Shown: piece after piece, positions 4,092-49,902 of the stretch
How positions within the stretch are numbered: position 1 is the stretch's first letter
Layout: the number at the start of each line of letters is the position of its first letter
The notes under the pieces: model-generated
What the model was told of the DNA's origin: nothing
What the model saw: only the letters and a program-made list of their open reading frames with translations
Database searches by the model: none
Source of the DNA: Candidatus Saccharimonadota bacterium
Lineage (GTDB): Bacteria > Patescibacteriota > Saccharimonadia > Saccharimonadales > JAGPDM01
Direction of reading: 5' to 3'
NCBI GenBank assembly: GCA_018057585.1
Contig: JAGPDM010000001.1
Location: 1-50,199, forward strand
Length of the DNA stretch: 50,199 nt
Translations under genes and position numbers: made by a program

Positions 4092-6590
4092 ATGTCTAAA
4101 AAATATCTACACATATCAGGACTAGTAGTTGTGGCATTGCTTGCTATTTCTATGCCAGCTTTTGCTCATCGGCCAGGCTGGGATGGTAGTCGTCTTGACG
4201 GAGATTATGGTGATCATAAGCGAAATACGACCTATATCTGTGAAAAGAATGTTGAGGTAGTGAGGAGTGGGTCTCTTGCAGACGGTAGAAGATATAAGGT
4301 TGTAGAACTCAGATTGCTAGGCAACGACAATGCATCTATTCATTATGATGAGCGTGGCAGCTTACTACCCCTAAATAATAAGAAATGCACAAATACGAAT
4401 GAGAATATATGGGATAATGATTGGAAGTTCCAACCTAGCAAGGTTACCTTTGATGGCGATAAGCCGATAGATATTTCATTGGGTGGCGTGAAAAGTACTG
4501 GCTCTACTTACGATTTTTGTGGTATTACTGCTTCATCTTCACCAGCAACAAGAATTGTCAGGAGCATGTATGGGATTGACTGTAAGATAAATGGCTCAGA
4601 GATTGCAACTATTAATGACCTAGGTGCAGCATCAATAAACGGCAAGAAACTGTACTGTGTTGGGTTGCCGAAATCAGGTTACGAGAGTAATTTTAGTGGA
4701 TATCCGACCTGTCCTAATAATGGCCCTCAGACAGATACGCAGATTTATAATGTTATCAAGGCTGGAGAGACAAAAGACTACGAAGGGATGCCTACAGTGG
4801 GTTACCTTACTCGTAGAACAATAGATGGTGGTTTTGAACTAAGCGAAGGTTACTACAACGTTCCAACCGTCAATGCTATTAATCCTAGTGCATACAGATA
4901 TGTTTCAGAAAATAGTCAGCCCTCACTGATAGACGGCACTAACTATTTTAATCTTAAAAAGAACGGTACGTTGGTTGGAGACGTGTCAGTTAAGCTGTGG
5001 GCTGCAAATACTGAAAATCCTTGGGGTGGAATAACAGGAACCCGTGATGGGGTTGTTCCGAAAAGAAGGGCAGATTTTTCACCACCGAGAAAAGCGAATG
5101 AGAATATCGCAAAAATTGCCTGTGGTGGTAACTATGTACAGTGTAAATCAGTTAAATCGACAGTAATGTTTACGTTAATTTATAACAAGAAAACTCAACA
5201 CGATGCAAGCTTTACTGGATATAGCGGTCCGCTTCCTGCCGGCTCTCTTAATCCATACCAAAACAGCAATAAAGTGCTACCTGGTAAGAAGTATTCTGTC
5301 CAAATAAAAGCTTGGAATAATGGTCCTGATAATGGCAAATTGACTGAATTATTTGTTGAAAACAAAAATACAAGTCTTGCATCTCACGAAGAGATGAGCC
5401 CAATTGATCCTGCCGCCTACAAGGGAGGTGTTAACACTATTCTTGGAGGTGACAAGGTGTATATAAAAAATAAAGAGTTTTGCTCAGAGGCTAGTGATAA
5501 ACCTCTAAGTTGTTGGTTTTGGTCGGTCTATGGTTTACCCAAAAATAAGAAAACACTTAAAACAAACTTCACCTTTCTGGTTTCTGCTAGCGCCAAGCAG
5601 AACGATAAAATTTGTTTCGATGTCTACATAAGAGAAAAGGATGCCGGCTCATCTAAGCGTAAGAAAGTGTGTTTTAAGGTCGATATTCCGACCAAGCCTG
5701 TACTTAAGGTTGAGGGTGGTGATGCCCGTTCAGCCGGTGCAAGGATGTCGACGACGGCAGGAACGGCATGTGTGGCCGAGCCTAGCTATAGTGGCGACGT
5801 AAAGACTCATTCTAGCCCAAGTGGAGGTGCTTCCTATGGTCAATATGCAGTGATGGGTAAAGGCGCTATAACTGGATTTAGATCGGAGAACGATAGCCTA
5901 TCCACCAATAAAAACCTGACTTTCTACAATAATAAGTCTACAAAAGGCGGTTATGAAGTAGTCTGTAGAGAAGATTTAGCAAAAAAGATAGAAAATGAAC
6001 CATTGAAAGTAACAAGAAATAATATGACAGGACTTTTAAGCGGTCCAGCGATTAATGATTCGGGTATGTATATAGTAAAAAAAATTGGCACAACTAAATT
6101 TACAACTACCGGCATAACTATTCCTAAAGGCTCTCGAAAGACTGTAGTTATCAATGGCGATCTTGTGATTAACGGAAACATTAAATACCCAACAGGTGGT
6201 TATTCAAGTAGAAAACAAGTATCCGCTTTAGCCGTTATTGTTAAGGGCAATATTCATATTGGAAAAGACGTAGATACTATCGAAGGGCTTTTCGTTGCCA
6301 GTGGCAAGATTATCACCTGCTCAAATGGGACCTCGTCGGCATTAGGTAGCCTCAAGCCAAACATCAAGAACTCCATCGGCAGAGGCCAGTGCGCTAAGCC
6401 CTTAAAGATTAAGGGTGCTATTGTTGCTAACGAAATCTATTTTAGGCGGACATATGGCGATATTGGCACAGGTAAGTATGCCGAGACAATTAGCTTCCTG
6501 CCTGAACTATATATAGCACCACCACCATTCAGTAGTAATCTACTAGAACTTAAACGCAACGATCAACTAGATTTGCCAGCTGTTTTTTAG
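4092..6590 (+). CDS. Large secreted Cys-rich protein, function unknown (possible beta-helix C-terminal region)
   Basis: 832 aa with a signal-peptide-like N-terminus (LVVVALLAISMPAFA|HRP) and many Cys residues. The C-terminal stretch VVINGDLVINGNIKY...AVIVKGNIHIGKDVDTIEGLFVASGKII is repetitive. I recognise no family. Confidence 0.8.
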   Translation: MSKKYLHISGLVVVALLAISMPAFAHRPGWDGSRLDGDYGDHKRNTTYICEKNVEVVRSGSLADGRRYKVVELRLLGNDNASIHYDERGSLLPLNNKKCTNTNENIWDNDWKFQPSKVTFDGDKPIDISLGGVKSTGSTYDFCGITASSSPATRIVRSMYGIDCKINGSEIATINDLGAASINGKKLYCVGLPKSGYESNFSGYPTCPNNGPQTDTQIYNVIKAGETKDYEGMPTVGYLTRRTIDGGFELSEGYYNVPTVNAINPSAYRYVSENSQPSLIDGTNYFNLKKNGTLVGDVSVKLWAANTENPWGGITGTRDGVVPKRRADFSPPRKANENIAKIACGGNYVQCKSVKSTVMFTLIYNKKTQHDASFTGYSGPLPAGSLNPYQNSNKVLPGKKYSVQIKAWNNGPDNGKLTELFVENKNTSLASHEEMSPIDPAAYKGGVNTILGGDKVYIKNKEFCSEASDKPLSCWFWSVYGLPKNKKTLKTNFTFLVSASAKQNDKICFDVYIREKDAGSSKRKKVCFKVDIPTKPVLKVEGGDARSAGARMSTTAGTACVAEPSYSGDVKTHSSPSGGASYGQYAVMGKGAITGFRSENDSLSTNKNLTFYNNKSTKGGYEVVCREDLAKKIENEPLKVTRNNMTGLLSGPAINDSGMYIVKKIGTTKFTTTGITIPKGSRKTVVINGDLVINGNIKYPTGGYSSRKQVSALAVIVKGNIHIGKDVDTIEGLFVASGKIITCSNGTSSALGSLKPNIKNSIGRGQCAKPLKIKGAIVANEIYFRRTYGDIGTGKYAETISFLPELYIAPPPFSSNLLELKRNDQLDLPAVF

Positions 6591-6664
6591 TCATAAACTG
6601 CAAACTTACTTTAAATAAAAAATGGGCTTACATAACTGATGATGCTTATGGTAATATTGTTTGC

Positions 6665-34263: not shown

Positions 34264-34701
34264 ATGGACAACATGCCAAATAGTGACGATCTAATTATCT
34301 ACACCGACGGTGGCTCTAGGGGCAATCCTGGTCCATCCGCTACTGGGTATGTGATTATGGATCGTAATTTAGAGATCATAGAGTCTGGTGGTGCGTATAT
34401 TGGAATTACCACAAACAATCAAGCCGAGTACCAGGCCGTGAAGATCGCACTTACTGAGGCTGAAAAGTACAAACCGGATAATATTGAGTTCAGAATAGAC
34501 AGTCTGCTGGTAGTTAACCAGATGAAAGGACTGTATAAGATAAAGAATCGTGACCTCTGGCCCATTAACGACTCAATTAAACGTCTGATTGAAGAAAGTA
34601 GTGCAAAAATAAGCTTTGTTCATGTTGGTCGTGACTTGAATGTACTCGCAGACCAGAAGGTTAACGAGGTTTTAGATAATCAGGCCAAACAAGTTATTTA
34701 G
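34264..34701 (+). CDS. rnhA: Ribonuclease HI family protein
   Basis: [30 protein letters not shown] and DSLLVVNQM supply the DEDD-type catalytic residues. Confidence 0.85.
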
Positions 34702-36318: not shown

Positions 36319-37815
36319 TTATTTAAATCGATACTGGAGAGCTTCAGCAACGGCCCGTTTGTCTATGAGTTCGCTGTTGTTGATGTCTGCAATTGTTCGG
36401 CTGACTTTTACAGTCTTAACATATGATCTTGAACTCAGCTTCAGACCTTTTGATGCCCTATCTAGTAATTCTTGCGATTCTTCGTCTAGATTTGCAAATT
36501 TTATCACCTCACGATTACTCATGTGTGCATTTAGCTTAGTGGAATTACCGAATCGTTGCTTCTGTCTGTCCCTGGCCCGATTTACGACGCTAGCCATGTC
36601 TACGTTCACGCTGTCCTTAATTGGCGTTTGTAATATCTCTGAATTATCGATCCTATCAATCTTGACGCTTAGATCAATTCGGTCTAAAAGTGGTCCCGAT
36701 ATACGTTTAGAGTACTGATTTATTTGATGCGGAGTACAAAGACATTCTTTATCTTTGTCTCCATAGTAGCCACAAGGACAGGGATTCTGGGTGGCCACAA
36801 GGGTGAATTGAGCAGGATATCTAACTCTCCCCTCGGCACGAGAGATGTCGACGTAGCTATCTTCTAGGGGCTGTCTTAGAGTCTCTAGAACCTGCCTAGG
36901 GTATTCGGGAAGCTCATCTAGAAATAATATCCCACGGTGACTAAGGCTGATCTCTCCCGGTTTAGGGATTCTACCGCCACCGATCATTGAAACGTGACTA
37001 GCAGTATGGTGTGGAGACCTTACTGGCCTATCCGATATCACTTGTCCTATGCTAGATCCGCCAATGCTCTGTATGTTTGTCACTTCAATAATCTCCTCAT
37101 CATTCATTGGGGGTAGTATCGATGGCAGGGCTTTAGCTAGCATGCTTTTGCCCGCTCCAGGCGGACCTGACAGAATTATGTTGTGCCCGCCAGCCGCTAC
37201 AATCATCATTGCACGTTTAGCCTGTGGTTGACCTTTAATGTCTGAAAAATCTAGTTTATTCACTCGATTTATTTTATTTCTGAAAGATGTGAAGCTGTTT
37301 ATATCCTGTTCATTATTGAGAAACATTACTACTTCTCTAAGGTTGCCTGCTGGCTTTATCTCAATATCTTTGACAAGACAAGCTTCGTCCGCATTAGCTT
37401 TGGGGATAACAATCTGTTTAAATCCGCGATCCCTAGCTAATATTGTATGGGCCAGAGCTCCCGGCACTGGTCGAAGCTCTCCGCTAAGTGATAGCTCGCC
37501 AATAAAAAAAGTTTTATCCAGCACCGCTGGCACTTGTTTAGATTTAGCCAAGATTGCAATAGCAAGTGGTAGATCGTAGCTACTACCTTGCTTAGGCATG
37601 TCTGCAGGCGCTAGATTCAAAGTTATCCTTTTCTTGGGTAATTGTAGGCTTGAGTTTACGAGAGCGCTCCTTACGCGTTCCTTGGCCTCATCTATGCTTT
37701 TTCCAGCAAGTCCTACCATGAGTATAGAAGGCAGGCCGTTGCTTAGTTCACATTCGACGTTAACGAGCCTGCTTTCGTAACCTATTATGCTTCCAGTATG
37801 AATAGTTACTGACAT
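36319..37815 (-). CDS. comM: YifB/ComM-family Mg-chelatase-like AAA+ ATPase
   Basis: Lon-protease-like N-domain, Walker A ILSGPPGAGKSMLA, Walker B GILFLDELPE, and a CxxC...C cluster (NPCPCGYYGDKDKECLC). Confidence 0.9.
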   Translation of the reverse strand: MSVTIHTGSIIGYESRLVNVECELSNGLPSILMVGLAGKSIDEAKERVRSALVNSSLQLPKKRITLNLAPADMPKQGSSYDLPLAIAILAKSKQVPAVLDKTFFIGELSLSGELRPVPGALAHTILARDRGFKQIVIPKANADEACLVKDIEIKPAGNLREVVMFLNNEQDINSFTSFRNKINRVNKLDFSDIKGQPQAKRAMMIVAAGGHNIILSGPPGAGKSMLAKALPSILPPMNDEEIIEVTNIQSIGGSSIGQVISDRPVRSPHHTASHVSMIGGGRIPKPGEISLSHRGILFLDELPEYPRQVLETLRQPLEDSYVDISRAEGRVRYPAQFTLVATQNPCPCGYYGDKDKECLCTPHQINQYSKRISGPLLDRIDLSVKIDRIDNSEILQTPIKDSVNVDMASVVNRARDRQKQRFGNSTKLNAHMSNREVIKFANLDEESQELLDRASKGLKLSSRSYVKTVKVSRTIADINNSELIDKRAVAEALQYRFK

Positions 37816-37839
37816 AAATCCTCATAATTATCTGCATGA

Positions 37840-37869
37840 ATTCTAAGCTTGAATGCTGTTACCTGTAAA
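37840..37869 (-). promoter_or_regulatory. Candidate comM promoter
   Basis: On the minus strand: TTTACA (37869-37864), an 18-nt spacer, then TAGAAT (37845-37840). GAGGA RBS before the ATG. Confidence 0.4.
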
Positions 37870-37874
37870 GCTCT

Positions 37875-37962
37875 TTAAATAAATAACAGCGACCCGGAGA
37901 AGGTCGCTGTTGATGGTATGTAACCGTTTTTGTTTTTGAGTACTTTTTTTATTCAAAGTACT
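37875..37962 (-). ncRNA. Candidate ~90-nt small RNA (promoter, 5' hairpin, terminator)
   Basis: Minus-strand TTGACA (37997-37992), a 17-nt spacer, then TAATCT (37974-37969). Next comes the hairpin AGTACTTT/AAAGTACT (37939-37962), a CA-rich linker, and the terminator at 37885-37911. It contains no ORF. Confidence 0.25.
37885..37911 (-). terminator. Intrinsic terminator oriented on the minus strand, upstream of the comM promoter
   Basis: Perfect 10-bp stem AACAGCGACC / GGTCGCTGTT with a 7-nt loop. The U-rich tract TTATTTATTT follows only on the minus strand. Confidence 0.55.
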
Positions 37963-38025
37963 GAATACAGATTAGAATATGCTTATGTTAGTGTCAATAG
38001 TCATTTTTACAATGACAATTCTGCC

Positions 38026-38034
38026 TGTGGATAA
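38026..38034. other. Perfect DnaA-box 9-mer (TGTGGATAA = TTATCCACA), isolated
   Basis: Exact match read directly from the sequence. I found no second box with 1 mismatch or fewer within the region. Confidence 0.4.
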
Positions 38035-39107
38035 AAGGTAAGATTCTTTGCCGATTTATAGAAGCGCTCCGTTCATTACTGCTTTAAATAAGAAGTTTCA
38101 TCAACCCTGCGTTAGCTAGGTGTGTGATGATAATTTAAAAAAATAATCACACTTAGCTCATCAGGAAATGCATCTCATCCAGTATTTTATGAAGGTTAAC
38201 TAAGTAGCTCAAATCATCAAATCTGTCTGACGTAGGTGATTTCGTGCCTAACGAATCGAAGTATTGGTGAGCACTAATATCTTTACATGCAGTCAACCTT
38301 GGGCAGGTGTCTGATCGACCAATAGGTTTGCTTGGTGATATGAAAAGACATGGATTTTAAGCAGAGCTCGATAAGTACCATTACCCCTACAAATTCAAAG
38401 CATTGGATCAGGCCGTTGTCTATCAACTAGTTATTTCAAGCATTAGATTAGTCTCATTGATTTTGTGAGCAGACTAGTAACTTGCCGAACAGGTTTAGCT
38501 GTCTGCAGATCGCTTTACGATTCAGCTTAAAAGTCAATCGAATTTAGCCGCTCCAATATATAGCAGTAGATTGGTTCATGATTTTTCTAGCTGCACGTAC
38601 AATTAATTATCTGTACGTATCTGTAGCCTTATTGCTCTTACTTTTGAAATAGAGCTTTTGTTAGGCAGTAGCGGCGTCGATAGCAACATAGATGATGCCT
38701 TTGAATGGTAATTAAATCACAGTTAGTTATAAATTTTAATTAAAAGTTTAAATATTATGAATCGGCTTTTATTAATATAAAATTACATTTCAAGTGATTT
38801 TAGTTAAATGTCGATACTGTTCAATGTTGGCTGTTTTGAAAGTGCTAATTCTAAACATAATAACTAGAGTGTTCAATTAAATTCTTCAAGACTCATAAGA
38901 ATACTTAGTAAATTTATATTAATATTGTAATTAATACTACATTAAATTTTTAAAATTACATCTGTTAATTCTTTTTACTACAACAAAATGTATTACTATT
39001 CATTGACTTGTTGAATATTAACTTGTTAATGTATATTTGTAACATTAAATCAATGTTATGCAAGTGTAGGTAGTTTGTTGCTTCTAGGTTTAAGCCTGAA
39101 GCAATTT

Positions 39108-39169
39108 AAAATAGAGCAATAAGCGCCACATAATTTGAGAAGTGTAGGGCGGTTTTATTGCTCTATTTT
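39108..39169. repeat. Long inverted repeat / hairpin immediately upstream of the 39199 operon
   Basis: AAAATAGAGCAATAA (39108-39122) pairs perfectly with TTATTGCTCTATTTT (39155-39169). An inner CGCC/GGCG adds 4 bp, the loop is 20 nt, and a T-run follows. Confidence 0.6.
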
Positions 39170-39198
39170 TTATATTATGAGGGTATACTGGTAATATT

Positions 39199-39525
39199 AT
39201 GAATATCCTAACATCACTCAAGCAGCAGTCATTCTTGTTGATAGCTTTAACCTTGAGCGTAGCTGTGATCGCCATAACTACTTCGCCCTTTTCATATCCA
39301 ATTTATGTGCCGATATTAGTAGTTTTGCTCGCTTCAATCAGCTTTATATCTATGGTTATGTTGCGTAATAAATTAAAAATATCTGTGAATATCGCTACGT
39401 TGGTGCATTTGAACATTATTGTCGCAGTAATTGTTGCACTATGTTCTTTACACCAGTTAAAAATTACTGACATGGCCTTGATAATTGGGCTGTATTTCTT
39501 ACTCAGGATTTATTCTAAAAGGTAG
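39199..39525 (+). CDS. Small polytopic membrane protein, hypothetical
   Basis: 108 aa with three to four hydrophobic helices. First gene of a co-directional trio. The RBS is weak. Confidence 0.5.
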   Translation: MNILTSLKQQSFLLIALTLSVAVIAITTSPFSYPIYVPILVVLLASISFISMVMLRNKLKISVNIATLVHLNIIVAVIVALCSLHQLKITDMALIIGLYFLLRIYSKR

Positions 39526-39564
39526 CGATGTAATTAGTGTTGGTTATTGTTATAATGCTTATAA

Positions 39565-40014
39565 ATGGAAGAACAAAATATAAATATGCAAACTGGAAAC
39601 ACAGAATTTAGACAGCCTGCACAAGAGTTTGTTGCTCCGCCGGGTAGTGAGCTTGTACCAGATTTAGCTCCAGCACCTGCAATGCAAGAAAAGGCTCCAG
39701 CAAACAGGGAGGGCGCTAATCAGAATAGTGGAATGACCTTGCCACCGGTTGTGCCTCAACCAATTTCAAACACTCCTGATCCACAGTCAGCAGCTTCTAT
39801 TAGCCAGGTTGCACCACTAGTGATAGACCCTAATCCACCTAAGGCAGACGATGTCGATGTGATTGAAAAAGAATGGGTAGATAAGGCAAGAAAGATCGTA
39901 GAGCAATCCAAAGACGACCCATACAGACAGGAGCTAGAAGTCGGAAAGCTTCAGATCGACTATATGAATAAACGTTATGGTAGGGAAATTAAACCTGGCA
40001 GTACGTCGCCTTAG
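39565..40014 (+). CDS. Hypothetical protein: Pro-rich N-half, charged helical C-terminus
   Basis: 149 aa. The C-terminal segment is DVIEKEWVDKARKIVEQSKDDPYRQELEVGKLQIDYMNKRYGREIK. Ends 9 nt before the ATPase gene. Confidence 0.65.
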   Translation: MEEQNINMQTGNTEFRQPAQEFVAPPGSELVPDLAPAPAMQEKAPANREGANQNSGMTLPPVVPQPISNTPDPQSAASISQVAPLVIDPNPPKADDVDVIEKEWVDKARKIVEQSKDDPYRQELEVGKLQIDYMNKRYGREIKPGSTSP

Positions 40015-40023
40015 GCTAATTGT

Positions 40024-43000
40024 ATGGCAGGTGTAATAGCAGTTTTAGTAACGATCAGCTTCTTCTTAGGAGCAATTGCTTTCGTCTACTACCGGTATCG
40101 TTCGATTCTAAGATATGCTAAGGGAGTAGAGAGAGGCTTGAAAGTTGTGCCGCTTCTAATCGAACTACCACCAGCAAGCGATGACACCGAGATAGGCACA
40201 AGAGATGTTAGGGACGTCTTACAGGAGAAAGTCTCACAAGCGGAGGTGCTATATAACATAGTTGCAAGCACGGCCCAGGATGGATTTAAGAGTAAATTTT
40301 ACGGACAGAGGCACATAGCATTCGAAATCGTGGCCGTTAAAGGTAGTGTTCACTTCTATGCAGCAGTTCCTGTGGCTCTGTTGGATATTGTTAAACAGGC
40401 GATTGTCAGTGCCTACCCGACGGTCCAGCTTCAAGAAGCACAAGAGCATAATATATTTAGTCAAGTTGGAAAGATTAGCGGGACCATAGGTGGCGAGGTG
40501 GTCCTTAAGAATGATTATGCATACCCGATCGCAACTATACAGCAGACTAAGCGAGATGGGATGCAGGGTCTACTCAACGCCTTGACAGCACTTGGCCCAG
40601 ACGATGGCGCTGCGGTACAGATCATGCTCCGTCCCGCAAAGTCTGGCTGGGAAAAGAAATCTAAGGATTTAGTCGATAGAATCAAAAAGGATAAAGGCAA
40701 AAGTGGCTCAGGTATTTCCGCTGGACTAGGTGGAGTCATGGACCTTATGGCGGCACCAAGCAAAGTCCCAGAAGCTAAAGAGAAAGCTCCGGACGAAAAG
40801 CAGCTTTCTAATCTAGAACAGAGTCAAGTAGAGGCAGTCGAAGAGAAAACCAGGCATCCAGCCTACGAGGTACTGATCAGGGTTGTTAGTTCATCAAATA
40901 CGGCGAATCGCTCTCAATCGACCCTACGCAATATTATTTCTTCATTTTCACTCTATGATGCCCCGGGATTGAACGGTTTTAAATATAATGAAGCTAAAGA
41001 TATCGAGAATTTCGTCACGGCGTTCATTTTTAGATTTTTTCCACCAGAGATTGACACCAATGTTTTGAATAGTGTAGAGCTAGCGACCTTATTTCATTTT
41101 CCTGATCAACAGTTTACTTATTCATCCCAGCTTCAGAGACAGTCTGCTAAGCAAGTTGACGGACCTAATATTTTGCCAGACTCCGGACTGTTGCTGGGCT
41201 ATAACGTGTTTAGGGGTGTTAAAAAAGAGATCCGCCTCAGCGCTGATGACCGTCGCAGGCATGTATATATAGTTGGTCAAACTGGTACTGGTAAGTCAAC
41301 ACTACTAGAGAACATAATCCTCCAGGACATGGTTGATGGAAACGGGCTAGCTTTTGTTGATCCTCACGGTGACACGGCCGAAAAGTTGCTATCCATGGCA
41401 CCGAGGAACAGAGTAGACGATATCGTCTACTTCAATCCGGGGGACATGGCCAATCCTTTAGGTTTGAATTTATTCGAGTTTACAGACCCTGAACAAAAGG
41501 ATTTTCTGATACAGGAAGCTATAAACATGCTATATAAGTTGTACGATCCACAACACCAAGGAATAATTGGCCCTAGATACGAGCACTGGTTTAGAAATGC
41601 CGCACTGACACTTATGGCCGATCCTAAAGGTGCTACATTCATAGAGATTCCTAAGATATTTACAGATAAGCAATTTGCTAAAGAAAAGCTAAAGTACGTC
41701 AAAGACCCGACTGTTCTAGATTTTTGGAATAAAGAAATGGCACAGACAAGTGATTATCATAAGAGTGAAGTCCTTGGTTGGTTTGTTAGTAAGTTCGGTG
41801 CTTTTGTCAGTAACGAAATGATGCGCAATATTATCGGACAGGTAAAGGGCTCGTTTGAGCTTCGAGATATTATGGATAATAAGAAAATATTGATAGTTAA
41901 CCTTTCGAAAGGCAAGGTGGGTGAACTAAACTCCAAGCTACTTGGAATGATATTCATAATGAAGTTTCAGGCTGCCGCCATGAGCAGAGCTAATATACCC
42001 GAAGACCAGCGCGTCGACTTCAGTCTGTATGTTGATGAGTTTCAGAACTTTTCAACTGACTCATTTGCCACGATATTGTCTGAGGCTAGAAAGTACCGTC
42101 TGAACCTAATCGTCGCCAACCAGTTCATAGGGCAGTTAACCGAAGAAATACGTGATGCGGTTTTTGGAAACGTCGGAACGATCATTAGTCTTAGGGCTGG
42201 TGCCACTGATGCAGATTTCCTAGTAAAACAATTCACACCGATATTTGATGCCCAAGATATTATAAAAGTACCGAACTACAACGCTATTACAAGATTGATG
42301 ATTGGGGGTGTTCCTTCCCAGCCTTTCAGCCTGACCACCTTGCCACCCTTTGGTACTCCGAACGAGCAGTTAATGAGTGCACTTAAGCAGCTGTCTGCTG
42401 CTCGTTATGGCAAACCACGTGCAGATGTTGAGAAGGACATATTTAAGCGATTAGAAACGAAGCCAGTACCTAATAAGCCAAAACTAGGAGCTCCTGGAGC
42501 GACTGGACGCGCATTGCCTGCTGCAGGCGGAGTAGGAGGGCGCCCTGGAGCAAAGGCTCCGGGCAAGCCAGGCTCAAGCTCTTTCTTGGACGACTGGCTA
42601 GCTAAGAAGAGGAAACAGGCAGCCACCTCATCATCCGGTCCATCCAGCTCGCTGCCAATGACGGCTTCATCAAGAGGTAGCAGCGATATCTCGACTAGCC
42701 AGCTACCACTACCGGCCGTGGTCAATGATCAGACGAGTAATAATACTCAGCAGTCTGAAAGTGTTTCTGGTGCCATAGATTATAGCCAACCACCAGTCGG
42801 GACAGATCAATCAACACCTGGAACCCCACAGCAAACCATTAACAACGAGCCACAGCCTGCGGTAACACCTTCGCAGTCCATTACCGCTCAGGCCATGGAT
42901 GCTCAATCTAACCCACGGAATATATATCAAAAAGCTCCAGCACAGGACGCAACAGTGAGCATTGATAACAACCTACAGGACGGCGGACTTGTGCAAAGCG

Positions 43001-43062
43001 CTCAAACTGATCAGCTGTCCCAGATTAATATTGATCAGAACGGTAATATAATCAACAAATAA
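40024..43062 (+). CDS. Membrane-anchored P-loop NTPase of the VirD4/TraD/VirB4-like (FtsK-HerA superfamily) type, with a long disordered tail
   Basis: N-terminal TM helix. Walker A GQTGTGKST (41275-41301), Walker B LYVDEFQNF (42025-42051), and ARKYRLNLIVANQFIGQL. The last ~200 aa are P/S/T/Q-rich. Confidence 0.85.
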   Translation: MAGVIAVLVTISFFLGAIAFVYYRYRSILRYAKGVERGLKVVPLLIELPPASDDTEIGTRDVRDVLQEKVSQAEVLYNIVASTAQDGFKSKFYGQRHIAFEIVAVKGSVHFYAAVPVALLDIVKQAIVSAYPTVQLQEAQEHNIFSQVGKISGTIGGEVVLKNDYAYPIATIQQTKRDGMQGLLNALTALGPDDGAAVQIMLRPAKSGWEKKSKDLVDRIKKDKGKSGSGISAGLGGVMDLMAAPSKVPEAKEKAPDEKQLSNLEQSQVEAVEEKTRHPAYEVLIRVVSSSNTANRSQSTLRNIISSFSLYDAPGLNGFKYNEAKDIENFVTAFIFRFFPPEIDTNVLNSVELATLFHFPDQQFTYSSQLQRQSAKQVDGPNILPDSGLLLGYNVFRGVKKEIRLSADDRRRHVYIVGQTGTGKSTLLENIILQDMVDGNGLAFVDPHGDTAEKLLSMAPRNRVDDIVYFNPGDMANPLGLNLFEFTDPEQKDFLIQEAINMLYKLYDPQHQGIIGPRYEHWFRNAALTLMADPKGATFIEIPKIFTDKQFAKEKLKYVKDPTVLDFWNKEMAQTSDYHKSEVLGWFVSKFGAFVSNEMMRNIIGQVKGSFELRDIMDNKKILIVNLSKGKVGELNSKLLGMIFIMKFQAAAMSRANIPEDQRVDFSLYVDEFQNFSTDSFATILSEARKYRLNLIVANQFIGQLTEEIRDAVFGNVGTIISLRAGATDADFLVKQFTPIFDAQDIIKVPNYNAITRLMIGGVPSQPFSLTTLPPFGTPNEQLMSALKQLSAARYGKPRADVEKDIFKRLETKPVPNKPKLGAPGATGRALPAAGGVGGRPGAKAPGKPGSSSFLDDWLAKKRKQAATSSSGPSSSLPMTASSRGSSDISTSQLPLPAVVNDQTSNNTQQSESVSGAIDYSQPPVGTDQSTPGTPQQTINNEPQPAVTPSQSITAQAMDAQSNPRNIYQKAPAQDATVSIDNNLQDGGLVQSAQTDQLSQINIDQNGNIINK

Positions 43063-45247: not shown

Positions 45248-47272
<2,025 letters not shown>

Positions 47273-47280
47273 AGGTAATT

Positions 47281-49902
47281 ATGGCTGAAAACGAAGAAAA
47301 CAATTTAGAAGAAACAACTCAAGACCAAGAAGAAGTTAATGTTGAACATGTTCATGTTGATGATATGGTGGTTCTTGAAGATGACAAAGCAAAATCAGTT
47401 AAACCGCGAACCATTGAAGACGAGATGGAGGAGAGTTATCTTCAATACTCCATGAGCGTGATTGTCTCGAGAGCACTTCCAGATGTTAGAGATGGTCTAA
47501 AACCGGTCCAGAGAAGGATCCTATACGTAATGGGCTTGAGTGGGCTACGCTCAACGGCTAAGTTCCGCAAATCAGCGACAGTAGTCGGTGACGTTATGGG
47601 TAGTTATCACCCCCATGGTGACTCTTCAATCTACGACACCATGGTTCGTATGGCTCAAGACTTCTCGATGCGCTACATGTTAGTTGACGGCCAGGGTAAC
47701 TTCGGTTCAATGGATGGTGATCCTCCAGCCGCCTATAGGTATACAGAGGCCAGAATGACCAAGGAAGCAGAGCAGATGCTTGTCGATATCGACAAGGAAA
47801 CAGTCGATTTCCGACCAAACTTTGACGATTCCAAGCAAGAACCATCTGTTCTACCAGCAAAACTGCCGAACCTTCTACTTAACGGTCAGGTTGGTATCGC
47901 AGTTGGTATGGCTACAAATATCCCGCCACACAACTTGAATGAGTTACTTGATGCCACTATCGAGATTATAGATAATCCAGAAGCAACAATTGATGACCTT
48001 CTAAAGCACGTAAAAGGTCCCGACTTCCCAACGGGGGGTATTGTCTATGGTAAAGAATCAATCAGAACAGCCTATGTTAGCGGTAGGGGTGGAATTATTA
48101 TCAGAGCTGTTGCCGAAATTGAAGAAAAACCGGGTAAAAAGGGCGGTCATAGGATCGTTGTTACTGAGATACCTTATGCTCAGAACAAAGCTACACTTGT
48201 AGAGAAAATTGCTGATCTAGTCAGGAATAAGAAAATCACAGGCGTTAGCGACCTTAGAGACGAAACTGCCAGAGGTAAGGTCAAGATTGTCATAGATCTA
48301 AAGAAAGATGCTTATCCTAAGAAGATTCTTAATCAACTATATAAACTTACTCCACTGCAGACAAGCCTGCACTACAATATGTTGGCATTGATTGACGGCA
48401 TTCAGCCTAGAGTCCTAGGGCTAGAAGCTATTCTGAAAGAGTACCTAAAGCACCGAAAGAATATTGTTCGCAGACGTACAGAGTACGAGCTTAGAAAGGC
48501 CGAAGCCCGTAAGCATATACTCGATGGATTAAAGATTGCTCTCGATAATATCGATGAGATTATTGCAACGATTAGAGCAAGTAAAACTACTGAAGAAGCT
48601 CAGAAGAATCTGATCAAAAAATTCAAACTCTCAGAACTACAGGCCAAAGCTATTCTGGCAATGCAATTACGCTCACTTGCTGGTCTTGAAAGGCAGAAGA
48701 TCGAGGACGAACTAGCCGAACTACTAACTCTAATTACAGAGCTAAAGAGAATACTAAGCGATGAGAAGTATATACTTGAAATAATTCGTGAGGAATTAGT
48801 AGAACTTAAAGAAAAGTTTGGTGATGAGCGAAGAACTCAGATAATTCCATACGAACTTGGTAAATTTAGTGAAGAAGAACTGATACCGAATGAACAGGTC
48901 GTTGTTACAATTACATCAAGTAATTATATCAAACGATCCAAAGCTGAAGACTATAAGAAGCAAAATCGAGGCGGCAAAGGCAGGCGGGGTATGACCACTA
49001 AGGATGAAGATCTTATAGAACATCTTATCTTGGCAAATACTCATGACTACCTATTGTTTTTTACTAATAAAGGCAGACTATTCAGGCTCAAGGCTTACGA
49101 AGTGCCGCAGGCTGGACTTATAGCCAAAGGGCAGGCAATCGTTAATCTATTGCAATTACAACCAGAAGAACGAGTCAACTCAGTTGTTAACCTGAATCAA
49201 CAAGGCACAGATGGCTATATGTTTATGTGTACCAAGAAAGGCATAGTCAAGAAAACAGCTATAGGCGACTACAAGAACGTCCGACAAAGTGGCTTGATTG
49301 CTATAAGACTAGATGAAGATGATGAACTTAAGTGGATAATGGTTAGTGGCGGTGAAGACGATATCGTCATCGTAACCCAAAAGGGTCAAGCGATTCGATT
49401 CGCTGAGAAGGATGTGCGTCCTATGGGCAGGGTAGCCAGGGGGGTTAGAGGTATCAGGCTAAGGGCTGGTGACGCTGTTATCGGTGCTGGCGTAGCTAAG
49501 CCGGACTCAAATATCTTTGTTATTAGCGACCATGGCTACGGTAAACGAACTAAAGTGTCACAGTTCACACTTCACAGACGAGGCGGCGTTGGTATCAGAG
49601 CAGCTATTGTAAACAAGAAAACCGGTGATTTGATCGCTATGCGTTCATTGCGAGACGTTGCCGACGAGATAATCATTATTTCCGAAAAAGGCCAGACTAT
49701 CCGAACTGAACTTAAGCAGATATCCGAAATTAGTCGTACAACCCAGGGTGTTCGAATTATGAAGCTTAACGCATCAGACATGGTAGCTTCGGTTGCTCTA
49801 GTTGTGAAAACACCAGGTGAAGACGGAATTGACGATGATCAAGACGGCGAAGACGACGATCAAGCTTCAGAGAAATCTGAAAATTCTACAGATAAAAAAT
49901 AA
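47281..49902 (+). CDS. gyrA: DNA gyrase subunit A
   Basis: [30 protein letters not shown], the catalytic Tyr context [10 protein letters not shown], a GyrA-box-like [10 protein letters not shown], beta-pinwheel repeats and acidic termini. Confidence 0.97.

Follow-up and report, generated by a model that had tools for sequence, protein, structure and literature searches.

Introduction

The transfer genes of the Enterococcus plasmid pCF10 are reportedly preceded by the prgQ leader, which is said to end at an intrinsic terminator ahead of them, and a second small RNA, Anti-Q, is said to come from the same region. RsaE and RoxS are trans-acting small RNAs (sRNAs) of Gram-positive bacteria with unpaired C-rich seeds. 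Cis leaders of the ribosomal-protein type, such as the L10 leader (RF00557), consist of a conserved structured domain that an A/U-rich linker joins to a terminator hairpin, and directly precede the operon they regulate. Here we compare with these systems a non-coding gap that separates comM, on the minus strand, from a plus-strand operon read as the core of a type IV secretion system (T4SS). The gap lies in a 50,199-nt stretch of DNA from a Saccharibacteria genome, referred to below as the window. A candidate structured RNA is found near each end of the gap, and we consider it probable that the whole is a conserved non-coding divergent control region across this order of Saccharibacteria.

Like the prgQ/Anti-Q region, the gap would be non-coding DNA dedicated to the control of T4SS genes that lie downstream and are related to the monoderm type (MPF-FATA), a likeness of layout. 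Unlike the pCF10 pair, the two RNAs of the gap neither overlap nor are complementary; they diverge and lie 1105 nt apart. The gap is also chromosomal and order-wide rather than plasmid-borne, with no pheromone or repressor genes seen. A duplex between the left and right RNAs of the window was calculated at −22.4 kcal/mol against −27.3 ± 4.3 kcal/mol for shuffled sequences, no better than chance; with no overlap and a duplex not above shuffles, an antisense pair of the pCF10 or FinP type was rejected. The right RNA shares with the L10 leader its structured domain, A/U-rich linker and terminator hairpin just upstream of an operon, a layout also shown by the L10 leader of the window's own genome. 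Unlike the L10 leader, it lies below the gathering score of every Rfam family, and nothing points to a binding protein. The left RNA resembles RsaE and RoxS in being short, in having its own putative promoter and terminator, in its near-invariant unpaired seed between hairpins and, in relatives, in a C/A-rich tail. It differs from them in that the seed is A-rich (CAAAAACAAAAAC) and in that no conserved target was found, complementarity to the L10 leader being significant in few genomes only. With regard to riboswitches, the GGUCAGUCA junction and an internal loop of the right element are near-invariant in relatives, the junction is missing in the window, and no ligand is suggested.

The left element

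Comparison of the gap with 40 relatives by BLAST identified a near-invariant core of ~30 nt (window positions 37925–37956) in 32 of 41 genomes, the window's own included. Beyond this core the same search gave only a 45-nt match near 39121–39165 in the same-family genome G001 and two trivial matches. The core falls within a candidate RNA on the minus strand, with the following features:

38026–38034, minus strand: TTATCCACA box (DnaA-box-like), ~28 nt upstream of the left −35 hexamer; the only exact match in the window
37997–37969, minus strand: promoter-like site, read from the sequence; −35 TTGACA at 37997–37992, 17-nt spacer, −10 TAATCT at 37974–37969
37962 to 37876, minus strand: left sRNA, ~87 nt, with 5′ hairpin, unpaired CAAAAACAAAAAC and 3′ hairpin/terminator; 5′ end placed from the promoter
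37955–37965 and 37936–37946, minus strand: arms of the 5′ hairpin in the predicted fold
37926–37938, minus strand: unpaired 13-nt CAAAAACAAAAAC
37902–37911 and 37885–37894, minus strand: arms of the 3′ hairpin, followed by AUUUAUUU; called terminator-like
37869–37840, minus strand: promoter-like site of comM, TTTACA-18-TAGAAT, 10 of 12 matches

In 40 aligned related sequences the features follow in the same order: a TTAT[ACG]CACA box, TTGACA and a TAAGAT-like hexamer 17 nt apart, a hairpin of at least 5 bp, CAAAAACAAAAAC and a second hairpin of the form AACAACGGCUU-CUCGCA-AGCCGUUGUU. The two promoter hexamers align across the 40 sequences; the box is seen in most of the rows, and its spacing from the promoter is equal in 13 of 14 relatives and in the window.

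The minus strand of 37876–37966 folds at −27.8 kcal/mol (z −6.9). Across the 40 sequences 98.3% of the alignment cells are paired and 11 of the 16 pairs have changed on both sides; when the partner was slid by 1–3 columns as a control, pairing fell to 26–45%. Read on the opposite strand, the G-U pairs of the first hairpin would become A-C mismatches, so only a minus-strand RNA fits, and one-base changes in the length of its loop exclude a reading frame.

A model of the left element, R2, matches the window at 37871–37971 with 70.9 bits. It matches 141 of the 151 genomes of the order (123 of 130 of high quality), nearly always once; the order-wide tallies, here and below, include the unpublished genome G035 as a single count. 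In a phylum-wide sample, also of 151 genomes, R2 was found in four of seven genomes of the same order and in the window's own, and in none outside the order.

In most relatives the left RNA would extend further, through a C/A-rich single-stranded tail of ~60 nt in which words like CCUCC or ACUCC occur, to a separate clear terminator, after which comM follows. In the window a promoter-like site for comM lies between the left 3′ hairpin and the comM start codon. We read the left element as a stand-alone sRNA, with a putative promoter and terminator of its own and a separate putative promoter for comM.

A duplex of the left RNA with the L10 leader was calculated for 17 genomes, giving z values of −5.8 in the window's genome (G000), −3.1 in G009, −2.4 in G014 and −2.3 in G033, and of −1.3 or weaker in the other 13. 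The L10 leader of G000 (C22:4557–4714; locus L053 1058–1215, plus strand) scores 42.6 bits, below the 44-bit threshold of RF00557. Its U-rich linker is complementary over 24 nt, with two G-U pairs, to CAAAAACAAAAACGGUUACAUACC of the left RNA.

The right element

Comparison of the relatives' gaps among themselves by BLAST brought out another conserved block, which directly precedes the first gene of the operon. It consists of TATTGAC-N17-TAGTAnnnT, a GUAAG...CUUAC hairpin, a variable hairpin, a helix P1 (CGCUC...GAGCG), the GGUCAGUCA junction and a long helix P2 (GGACGGUAAGCGCU...AGCGGAUUUACCGUCC). The junction and a UAAG/GAUUU internal loop are near-invariant, and the loop of the GUAAG...CUUAC hairpin carries AAAACAAAAAC, exactly in 12 of 36 loci and with one mismatch in 13 more. 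The corresponding features of the window are:

39003–39032, plus strand: promoter-like site, −35 TTGACT at 39003–39008 and −10 TAATGT at 39027–39032; a positional match to the TATTGAC-N17-TAGTAnnnT consensus of 36 relatives
39039–39176, plus strand: right RNA, ~138 nt, with 5′ hairpin (39039–39059), P1 (39077–39105), P2 (39108–39169) and then U6

P2 and the U6 were called an intrinsic terminator, the U-run of which ends 24 nt before the ATG at 39199, and the segment 39036–39176 folds at −43 kcal/mol (z −4.8). An earlier, preliminary description of this DNA had listed TTATTGCTCT / AGAGCAATAA as a motif recurring at three places. Two of these, 39108–39122 and 39155–39169, are the arms of a single perfect 15-bp hairpin, P2, and the supposed third copy at 38628–38638 is a lone 11-nt match of a size typical of chance pairs in the repeat list.

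The model R1, which represents the 3′ domain of the right element, was built from 12 relatives without the window sequence. It matches the window at 39077–39169 with 34.2 bits (E 5e-6 to 5e-5) and G001 with 32.4 bits, and is found in 135 of the 151 genomes of the order, at one place in each, and in 119 of the 130 of high quality. In an alignment of 40 sequences 98.7% of cells are paired, against 30–47% in slid controls, and both sides have changed in 11 of 19 pairs. Compensatory changes are seen in both end elements.

Divergent arrangement across the order

R1 and R2 lie on one contig in 126 genomes, which are those counted as paired; nine further genomes with R1 were omitted because R2 appeared to be on another contig, partial or missing. 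In all 126 the two hits are on opposite strands and divergent. The distance between them ranges from 217 to 3210 nt with a median of 849 nt and falls between 500 and 1250 nt in 112 of the 126; it is 1105 nt in the window. The contexts of 14 relatives from different families were fetched (12 kb each), and in every one the left core is followed by 0.8–1.7 kb with few or no open reading frames (ORFs) and then by the same plus-strand operon. All 14 have the 149-aa protein and the ATPase of this operon to the right of the gap, and 12 have a comM homologue to its left.

Nine genomes gave no R1 or R2 match. Three high-quality genomes from one such family keep the ATPase gene (49–57% identity) and hold weak, diverged copies in the expected arrangement, with R2 at 25–29 bits and R1 at 11–18 bits, which indicates that the misses are mostly a matter of divergence. 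A metagenome scan for closer relatives returned two identical contigs with the same BLAST coordinates as G001.

From these features we infer transcription, the RNA ends, attenuation and any trans action. Two outward-facing promoters of the sigma-70 type would lie near the ends of the gap. The left promoter would give rise to a stand-alone sRNA, ~87 nt long here and ended by the 3′ hairpin and a U-rich tail, in which the near-invariant unpaired CAAAAACAAAAAC would be the contact surface for a trans partner, protein or RNA; comM would be transcribed from its own, separate promoter. The right promoter would produce a structured leader comprising a hairpin, P1, the junction and the long P2 with its conserved internal loop. 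Since the putative leader terminator stands 24 nt before the first T4SS gene, transcription of the operon would have to read through it, and we read the right element as the leader and attenuator of the T4SS operon. Set by some signal, this attenuator would gate transcription of the T4SS core operon. The ~960 nt in the middle of the gap here would form a variable spacer, open to insertions and lowered in G+C by drift, which may carry regulator sites.

It is also possible, although we give this less weight, that the right element is a second stand-alone sRNA with its own terminator and that the T4SS operon has a transcript of its own. Just this design is shown by the left element, a crude scan finds terminator-like hairpins after P2 in 26 of 38 loci, and a promoter-like TTTAAA-18-CATAAT occurs at 39105–39134, inside P2 of the window. 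The 24 nt between the U-run and the ATG in the window speak against it, as does the position of the element just upstream of the same operon in all 14 contexts; in relatives mostly 9–90 nt (a crude estimate) separate the end of P2 from the ORF, leaving little room for a promoter and a 5′ untranslated region.

Several observations weigh against the reading of the right element as an attenuator, or against the control region as a whole. The anatomy of the right element also fits a stand-alone sRNA, and 12 of the 38 loci lack a terminator-like hairpin after P2 in the crude scan, so that attenuation may not be general. The right RNA of the window is a diverged copy, scoring 34 bits against 60–98 in most relatives; it has neither the GGUCAGUCA junction, which is absent from the G001 copy too, nor the A-rich loop motif, which is present in 25 of 36 relatives with at most one mismatch. 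Both promoters of the window have weak −10 hexamers and are absent from the output of the promoter scan. The R1 alignment was fitted to its model and the sequences of both elements are related, so the covariation counts are inflated in the direction of structure. The clustering of spacer lengths hints at a constraint that the proposed explanation does not cover. Finally, a search of sequencing runs gave no RNA run that holds this DNA; the four runs examined (X3, X18, X19 and X20) are contigs and probably DNA, and X19 and X20 cover short pieces only, including a conserved 32-mer from relatives.

Flanking genes and the putative secretion operon

The window is contig C2 of the metagenome-assembled genome G000 (0.83 Mb, 68.5% complete); the genomes of relatives are 0.5–1.6 Mb in size. 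The clusters nearest to the 149-aa neighbour protein are labelled Candidatus Saccharimonadota, and the window DNA is also present in many wastewater and activated-sludge runs. To the left of the gap, the minus strand carries rplT, infC, a DUF4446 gene and comM/yifB. The two transcription units that adjoin the gap are:

36319–37815, minus strand: comM/yifB, 498 aa; Pfam Mg_chelatase/ChlI, TIGR00368 at 3.8e-174
39199–43062, plus strand: downstream operon encoding a 108-aa membrane protein, a 149-aa protein and a 1012-aa HerA/TraD/VirB4-like ATPase

Position 37815, given in the preliminary description as the end of comM, is its start codon, the gene being on the minus strand. The 1012-aa ATPase has Pfam matches to DUF87 (HerA), AAA_22 and TraG-D_C, weak NCBIfam matches to TraD, TrbC, VirD4-like and VirB4 that are confined to the P-loop region, and matches in the PDB to IcmO/DotL and TrwB. 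A survey of T4SS genes in Patescibacteria reports that homologues resembling TrsD and PrgI/VirB3 are encoded close to virB4, in most cases with no relaxase, and derives the system from the conjugation machinery of monoderm bacteria (PMC12102498). The three genes here are taken to be this core, with the names PrgI/VirB3, TrsD and VirB4 adopted tentatively from the survey (PMC12102498), and we read the three-gene plus-strand operon as the T4SS core. In Southlakia epibionticum the T4SS cluster is reported to be essential for epibiotic growth on the host (PMC10633639).

Further genes of the window are an RNase H gene with a match of the RVT_3 type just left of rplT (34264–34701), two minus-strand genes after the ATPase (127 and 548 aa) that have no Pfam or NCBIfam match, and gyrB followed by an 873-aa ORF (within 45254–49902).

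The gap and its variable middle

With no ORF of 60 aa or more, as had been described, positions 37816–39089 (1274 nt) form the longest such stretch in the assembly (67 contigs, 834 kb), ahead of stretches of 1095 and 982 nt; the largest ORF within it has 47 aa, and it contains no tRNA or tmRNA. The view of the gap as unusual in a tightly packed genome is borne out by this ranking. Four other ORF-free stretches of at least 200 nt occur in the window (476, 474, 206 and 297 nt), the first two of which contain tRNA-Asp and tRNA-Val. Elsewhere in G000, stretches of 0.9–1.1 kb without an ORF of at least 60 aa are found at C57:4880–5974, C53:3751–4732, C3:6886–7802, C19:10954–11868 and C9:3063–3962; these may hold rRNA, RNase P RNA, tmRNA or other non-coding genes.

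Between the two end elements lies the following feature:

38040–39000, no strand assigned: variable non-coding spacer, 38% G+C as far as 38700 and ~20% G+C over 38701–39000

At 20.3% G+C, positions 38701–39060 are the lowest of all 360-nt segments in the genome (median 42.5%, 0.1 percentile 28.8%). The consecutive 60-nt lines give 15, 23, 28, 18, 15 and 22%, the range of 15–28% counted by hand before; positions 38040–38700 have 38.4%. A search of 38700–39001 for phased A-tracts was negative, 170 of 300 shuffles scoring as high. For the middle, folding gave z scores of −1.3 (plus strand) and −2.3 (minus strand). The hairpin noted earlier at 38113–38158 is real (−20.6 kcal/mol, z −4.5), and no counterpart of it was found in relatives. 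It has a stem of 11–13 bp and no U-run, and belongs to the part of the spacer that is not conserved.

No DNA or six-frame similarity links the spacer to the related loci or to the rest of its own genome. Even against the same-family genome G001, in which the coding flanks are ~69% identical, the spacer has no match. Among 37 loci the spacers range from 21 to 47% G+C and share only A/T-rich 8-mers, and they contain no conserved small ORF, the matches being short (12–38 residues) and between few pairs of genomes. The spacers of relatives are enriched in palindromes of the form TTGT-N6-12-ACAA (25, where shuffled sequences give 7.2 ± 2.5), most of which immediately precede the right −35 hexamer; the window has none. 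The spacers of two relatives, G029 and G014, contain multi-copy palindromic elements of ~175 nt. These lie at 6434–6618 of locus L013 (G029) and at 6266–6457 of locus L018 (G014), with at least three further copies; they are near-perfect palindromes of −91 to −93 kcal/mol, occur in several copies per locus, are similar between the two families and look like miniature mobile or REP-like (repetitive extragenic palindromic) repeats. Such multi-copy palindromes, together with the range of lengths from 217 to 3210 nt, imply that the spacer accepts insertions. We regard the middle as a weakly constrained spacer, the AT-rich part of which may reflect mutational drift upstream of a promoter.

A decayed gene and foreign DNA had both been suggested for the region. 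That 38040–38700 is the remnant of a decayed gene, or a recent foreign or mobile insertion, is in our view unlikely. Its G+C content of 38% is near that of coding DNA and unlike that of the adjoining 20% block, and the palindromes and variable lengths just described show that insertions are tolerated. Against this, each of the six frames of the middle has 31–44 stops, and no frame exceeds 112 aa when any one of TAA, TAG or TGA is read through. The six-frame translations found nothing in the related loci or the same genome, in a comparison that left the general protein database unsearched, and the comparison of spacer ORFs gave no remnant either. For an insertion there is equally no sign: collections of plasmids and phages gave no match, the genome holds no second copy, and, besides the two RNA hairpins, the repeats are short or imperfect, with none at the ends of the spacer.

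We consider it very unlikely that one long non-coding RNA, or an oriT-like relic of a conjugative ancestor of the T4SS, spans the whole gap. The clustering of gap lengths at 0.5–1.25 kb in 112 of 126 genomes would suit such an element, as would the minus-strand fold of 38040–38700 (z −2.3) and, for oriT, the conjugative ancestry given in the survey (PMC12102498). The middle is, though, unconserved even within the family, with shared 8-mers that are A/T runs only; the conserved ends point away from each other, with a promoter-like site for each, and in some genomes stand only 217–392 nt apart. Most such T4SS clusters, moreover, lack a relaxase according to the same survey (PMC12102498).

Of the explanations first offered for the gap, non-coding RNA fits its two ends (37871–38034 and 39003–39176), which are structured elements found order-wide with promoter- and terminator-like signals, and not for the rest. 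A regulatory region of the downstream ATPase operon, which appears to be the T4SS core operon, is likewise supported at those two ends only. The hairpins of 38040–38700 and the AT-rich block, on which the emphasis had been laid, have no detectable conservation, and the AT-rich block that first drew attention is probably the least informative part of the region.

Tests for known RNA families and a replication origin

In a scan with the 4227 models of Rfam 15, one of the checks proposed at the outset, nothing in the gap reached a gathering threshold, and the window as a whole gave two tRNAs only. The best sub-threshold match (E ≤ 10) was Plastid-psbA-3, at 35.4 against 48.4 bits; this is the P2 hairpin, and it matches on both strands. 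Seven related loci gave no Rfam match at E ≤ 0.1.

Signal recognition particle (SRP) RNA and 6S RNA were rejected as identities of either element, neither family scoring in five genomes. Small and large SRP RNA, the Ffh M domain (PF02978) and 6S RNA had no match in G000, G006, G070, G080 and G121, four of which are complete; the best sub-threshold score for SRP RNA was 13.9 bits. In 14 control genomes the same searches were positive in 12 (small SRP), 9 (large SRP), 14 (Ffh M domain) and 5 (6S). As the Ffh M domain was not detected, no SRP RNA is expected, and this order may lack the SRP pathway or have a strongly diverged one.

A chromosomal replication origin, with an AT-rich unwinding element and a DnaA box between divergent genes, would share several properties with the gap. 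As in bacterial oriC regions, the DNA is AT-rich (the most so in the genome), the flanking genes diverge, and there is one DnaA-box-like 9-mer, the exact TTATCCACA box, whose position is conserved. Low G+C by itself, however, is not enough to define an unwinding element. Unlike an oriC, the gap fails the tests of skew, dnaA proximity and box clustering. Taken over 2 kb, G+C skew stays positive to the left and to the right of the gap, with no change of sign. The cumulative skew of the complete genome G006 (669 kb) is lowest at ~630 kb, with dnaA at 647 kb, and highest at ~260 kb; the locus, at 106 kb, is on the rising arm. The dnaA gene is on another contig here and 130–150 kb away in G006 and G009. 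There is no cluster of boxes: 15 loci hold zero to three near-matches each, most relatives one, and only one is positionally conserved. In G052 the two elements are just 217 nt apart. These tests contradict an origin, and the skew check that had been advised excludes one; we judge it extremely improbable.

Significance and occurrence of the A-rich word elsewhere

Neither element was found described in the open-access papers and bioRxiv preprints on RNAs of Saccharibacteria, TM7x or Patescibacteria, and both would be new RNA families for annotation. Among Patescibacteria, only the Saccharibacteria have, to our knowledge, been widely cultivated. The stretch from comM to the T4SS operon holds two structured RNA candidates, single-copy and found order-wide, which offer mutable targets in these now-transformable organisms. 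A TM7x transcriptome preprint states that small RNAs have yet to be validated (10.1101/2022.03.25.485537).

The CAAAAACAAAAAC word recurs upstream of rsmH in four of the six genomes checked (G000, G070, G080 and G121) and, in G000, upstream of mraZ as well. Exact copies in G000 number four, against ~0.07 estimated by chance. The positions are:

G000:C38:819 and 1581, minus strand: CAAAAACAAAAAC near rsmH and mraZ; also in loci L087, L088 and L089 (G070, G080 and G121)

Its recurrence at several loci suggests a shared reader. It is conceivable, if doubtful, that CAAAAACAAAAAC, in the left RNA, in the first hairpin loop of the T4SS leader of most relatives and before rsmH and mraZ, is an RNA tag of one trans factor. 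The locus would then be the hub of a post-transcriptional circuit coupling the T4SS to cell division, with the left RNA as a titrating decoy. If true, this circuit could be how the cells switch between the free swarmer and the host-attached mother state; the regulation of the life cycle of Saccharibacteria is called 'completely unknown' in a 2024 perspective (PMC11665869).

A conserved C/A-rich stretch (…CCUCCCAAAACUCCACCUCACAC…), similar to the tail that the left RNA has in relatives, stands ahead of CAAAAACAAAAAC in the region before rsmH. Boxes of the type found upstream of the left RNA promoter (TTATNCACA) number 21 in the whole of G006, any two of them being more than 1 kb apart. The region upstream of mraZ in G000 (C38, ~1650–1760) has three TTATNCACA boxes, two of which form a perfect palindrome, AGTTATCCACATTTGTGTGGATAACT.

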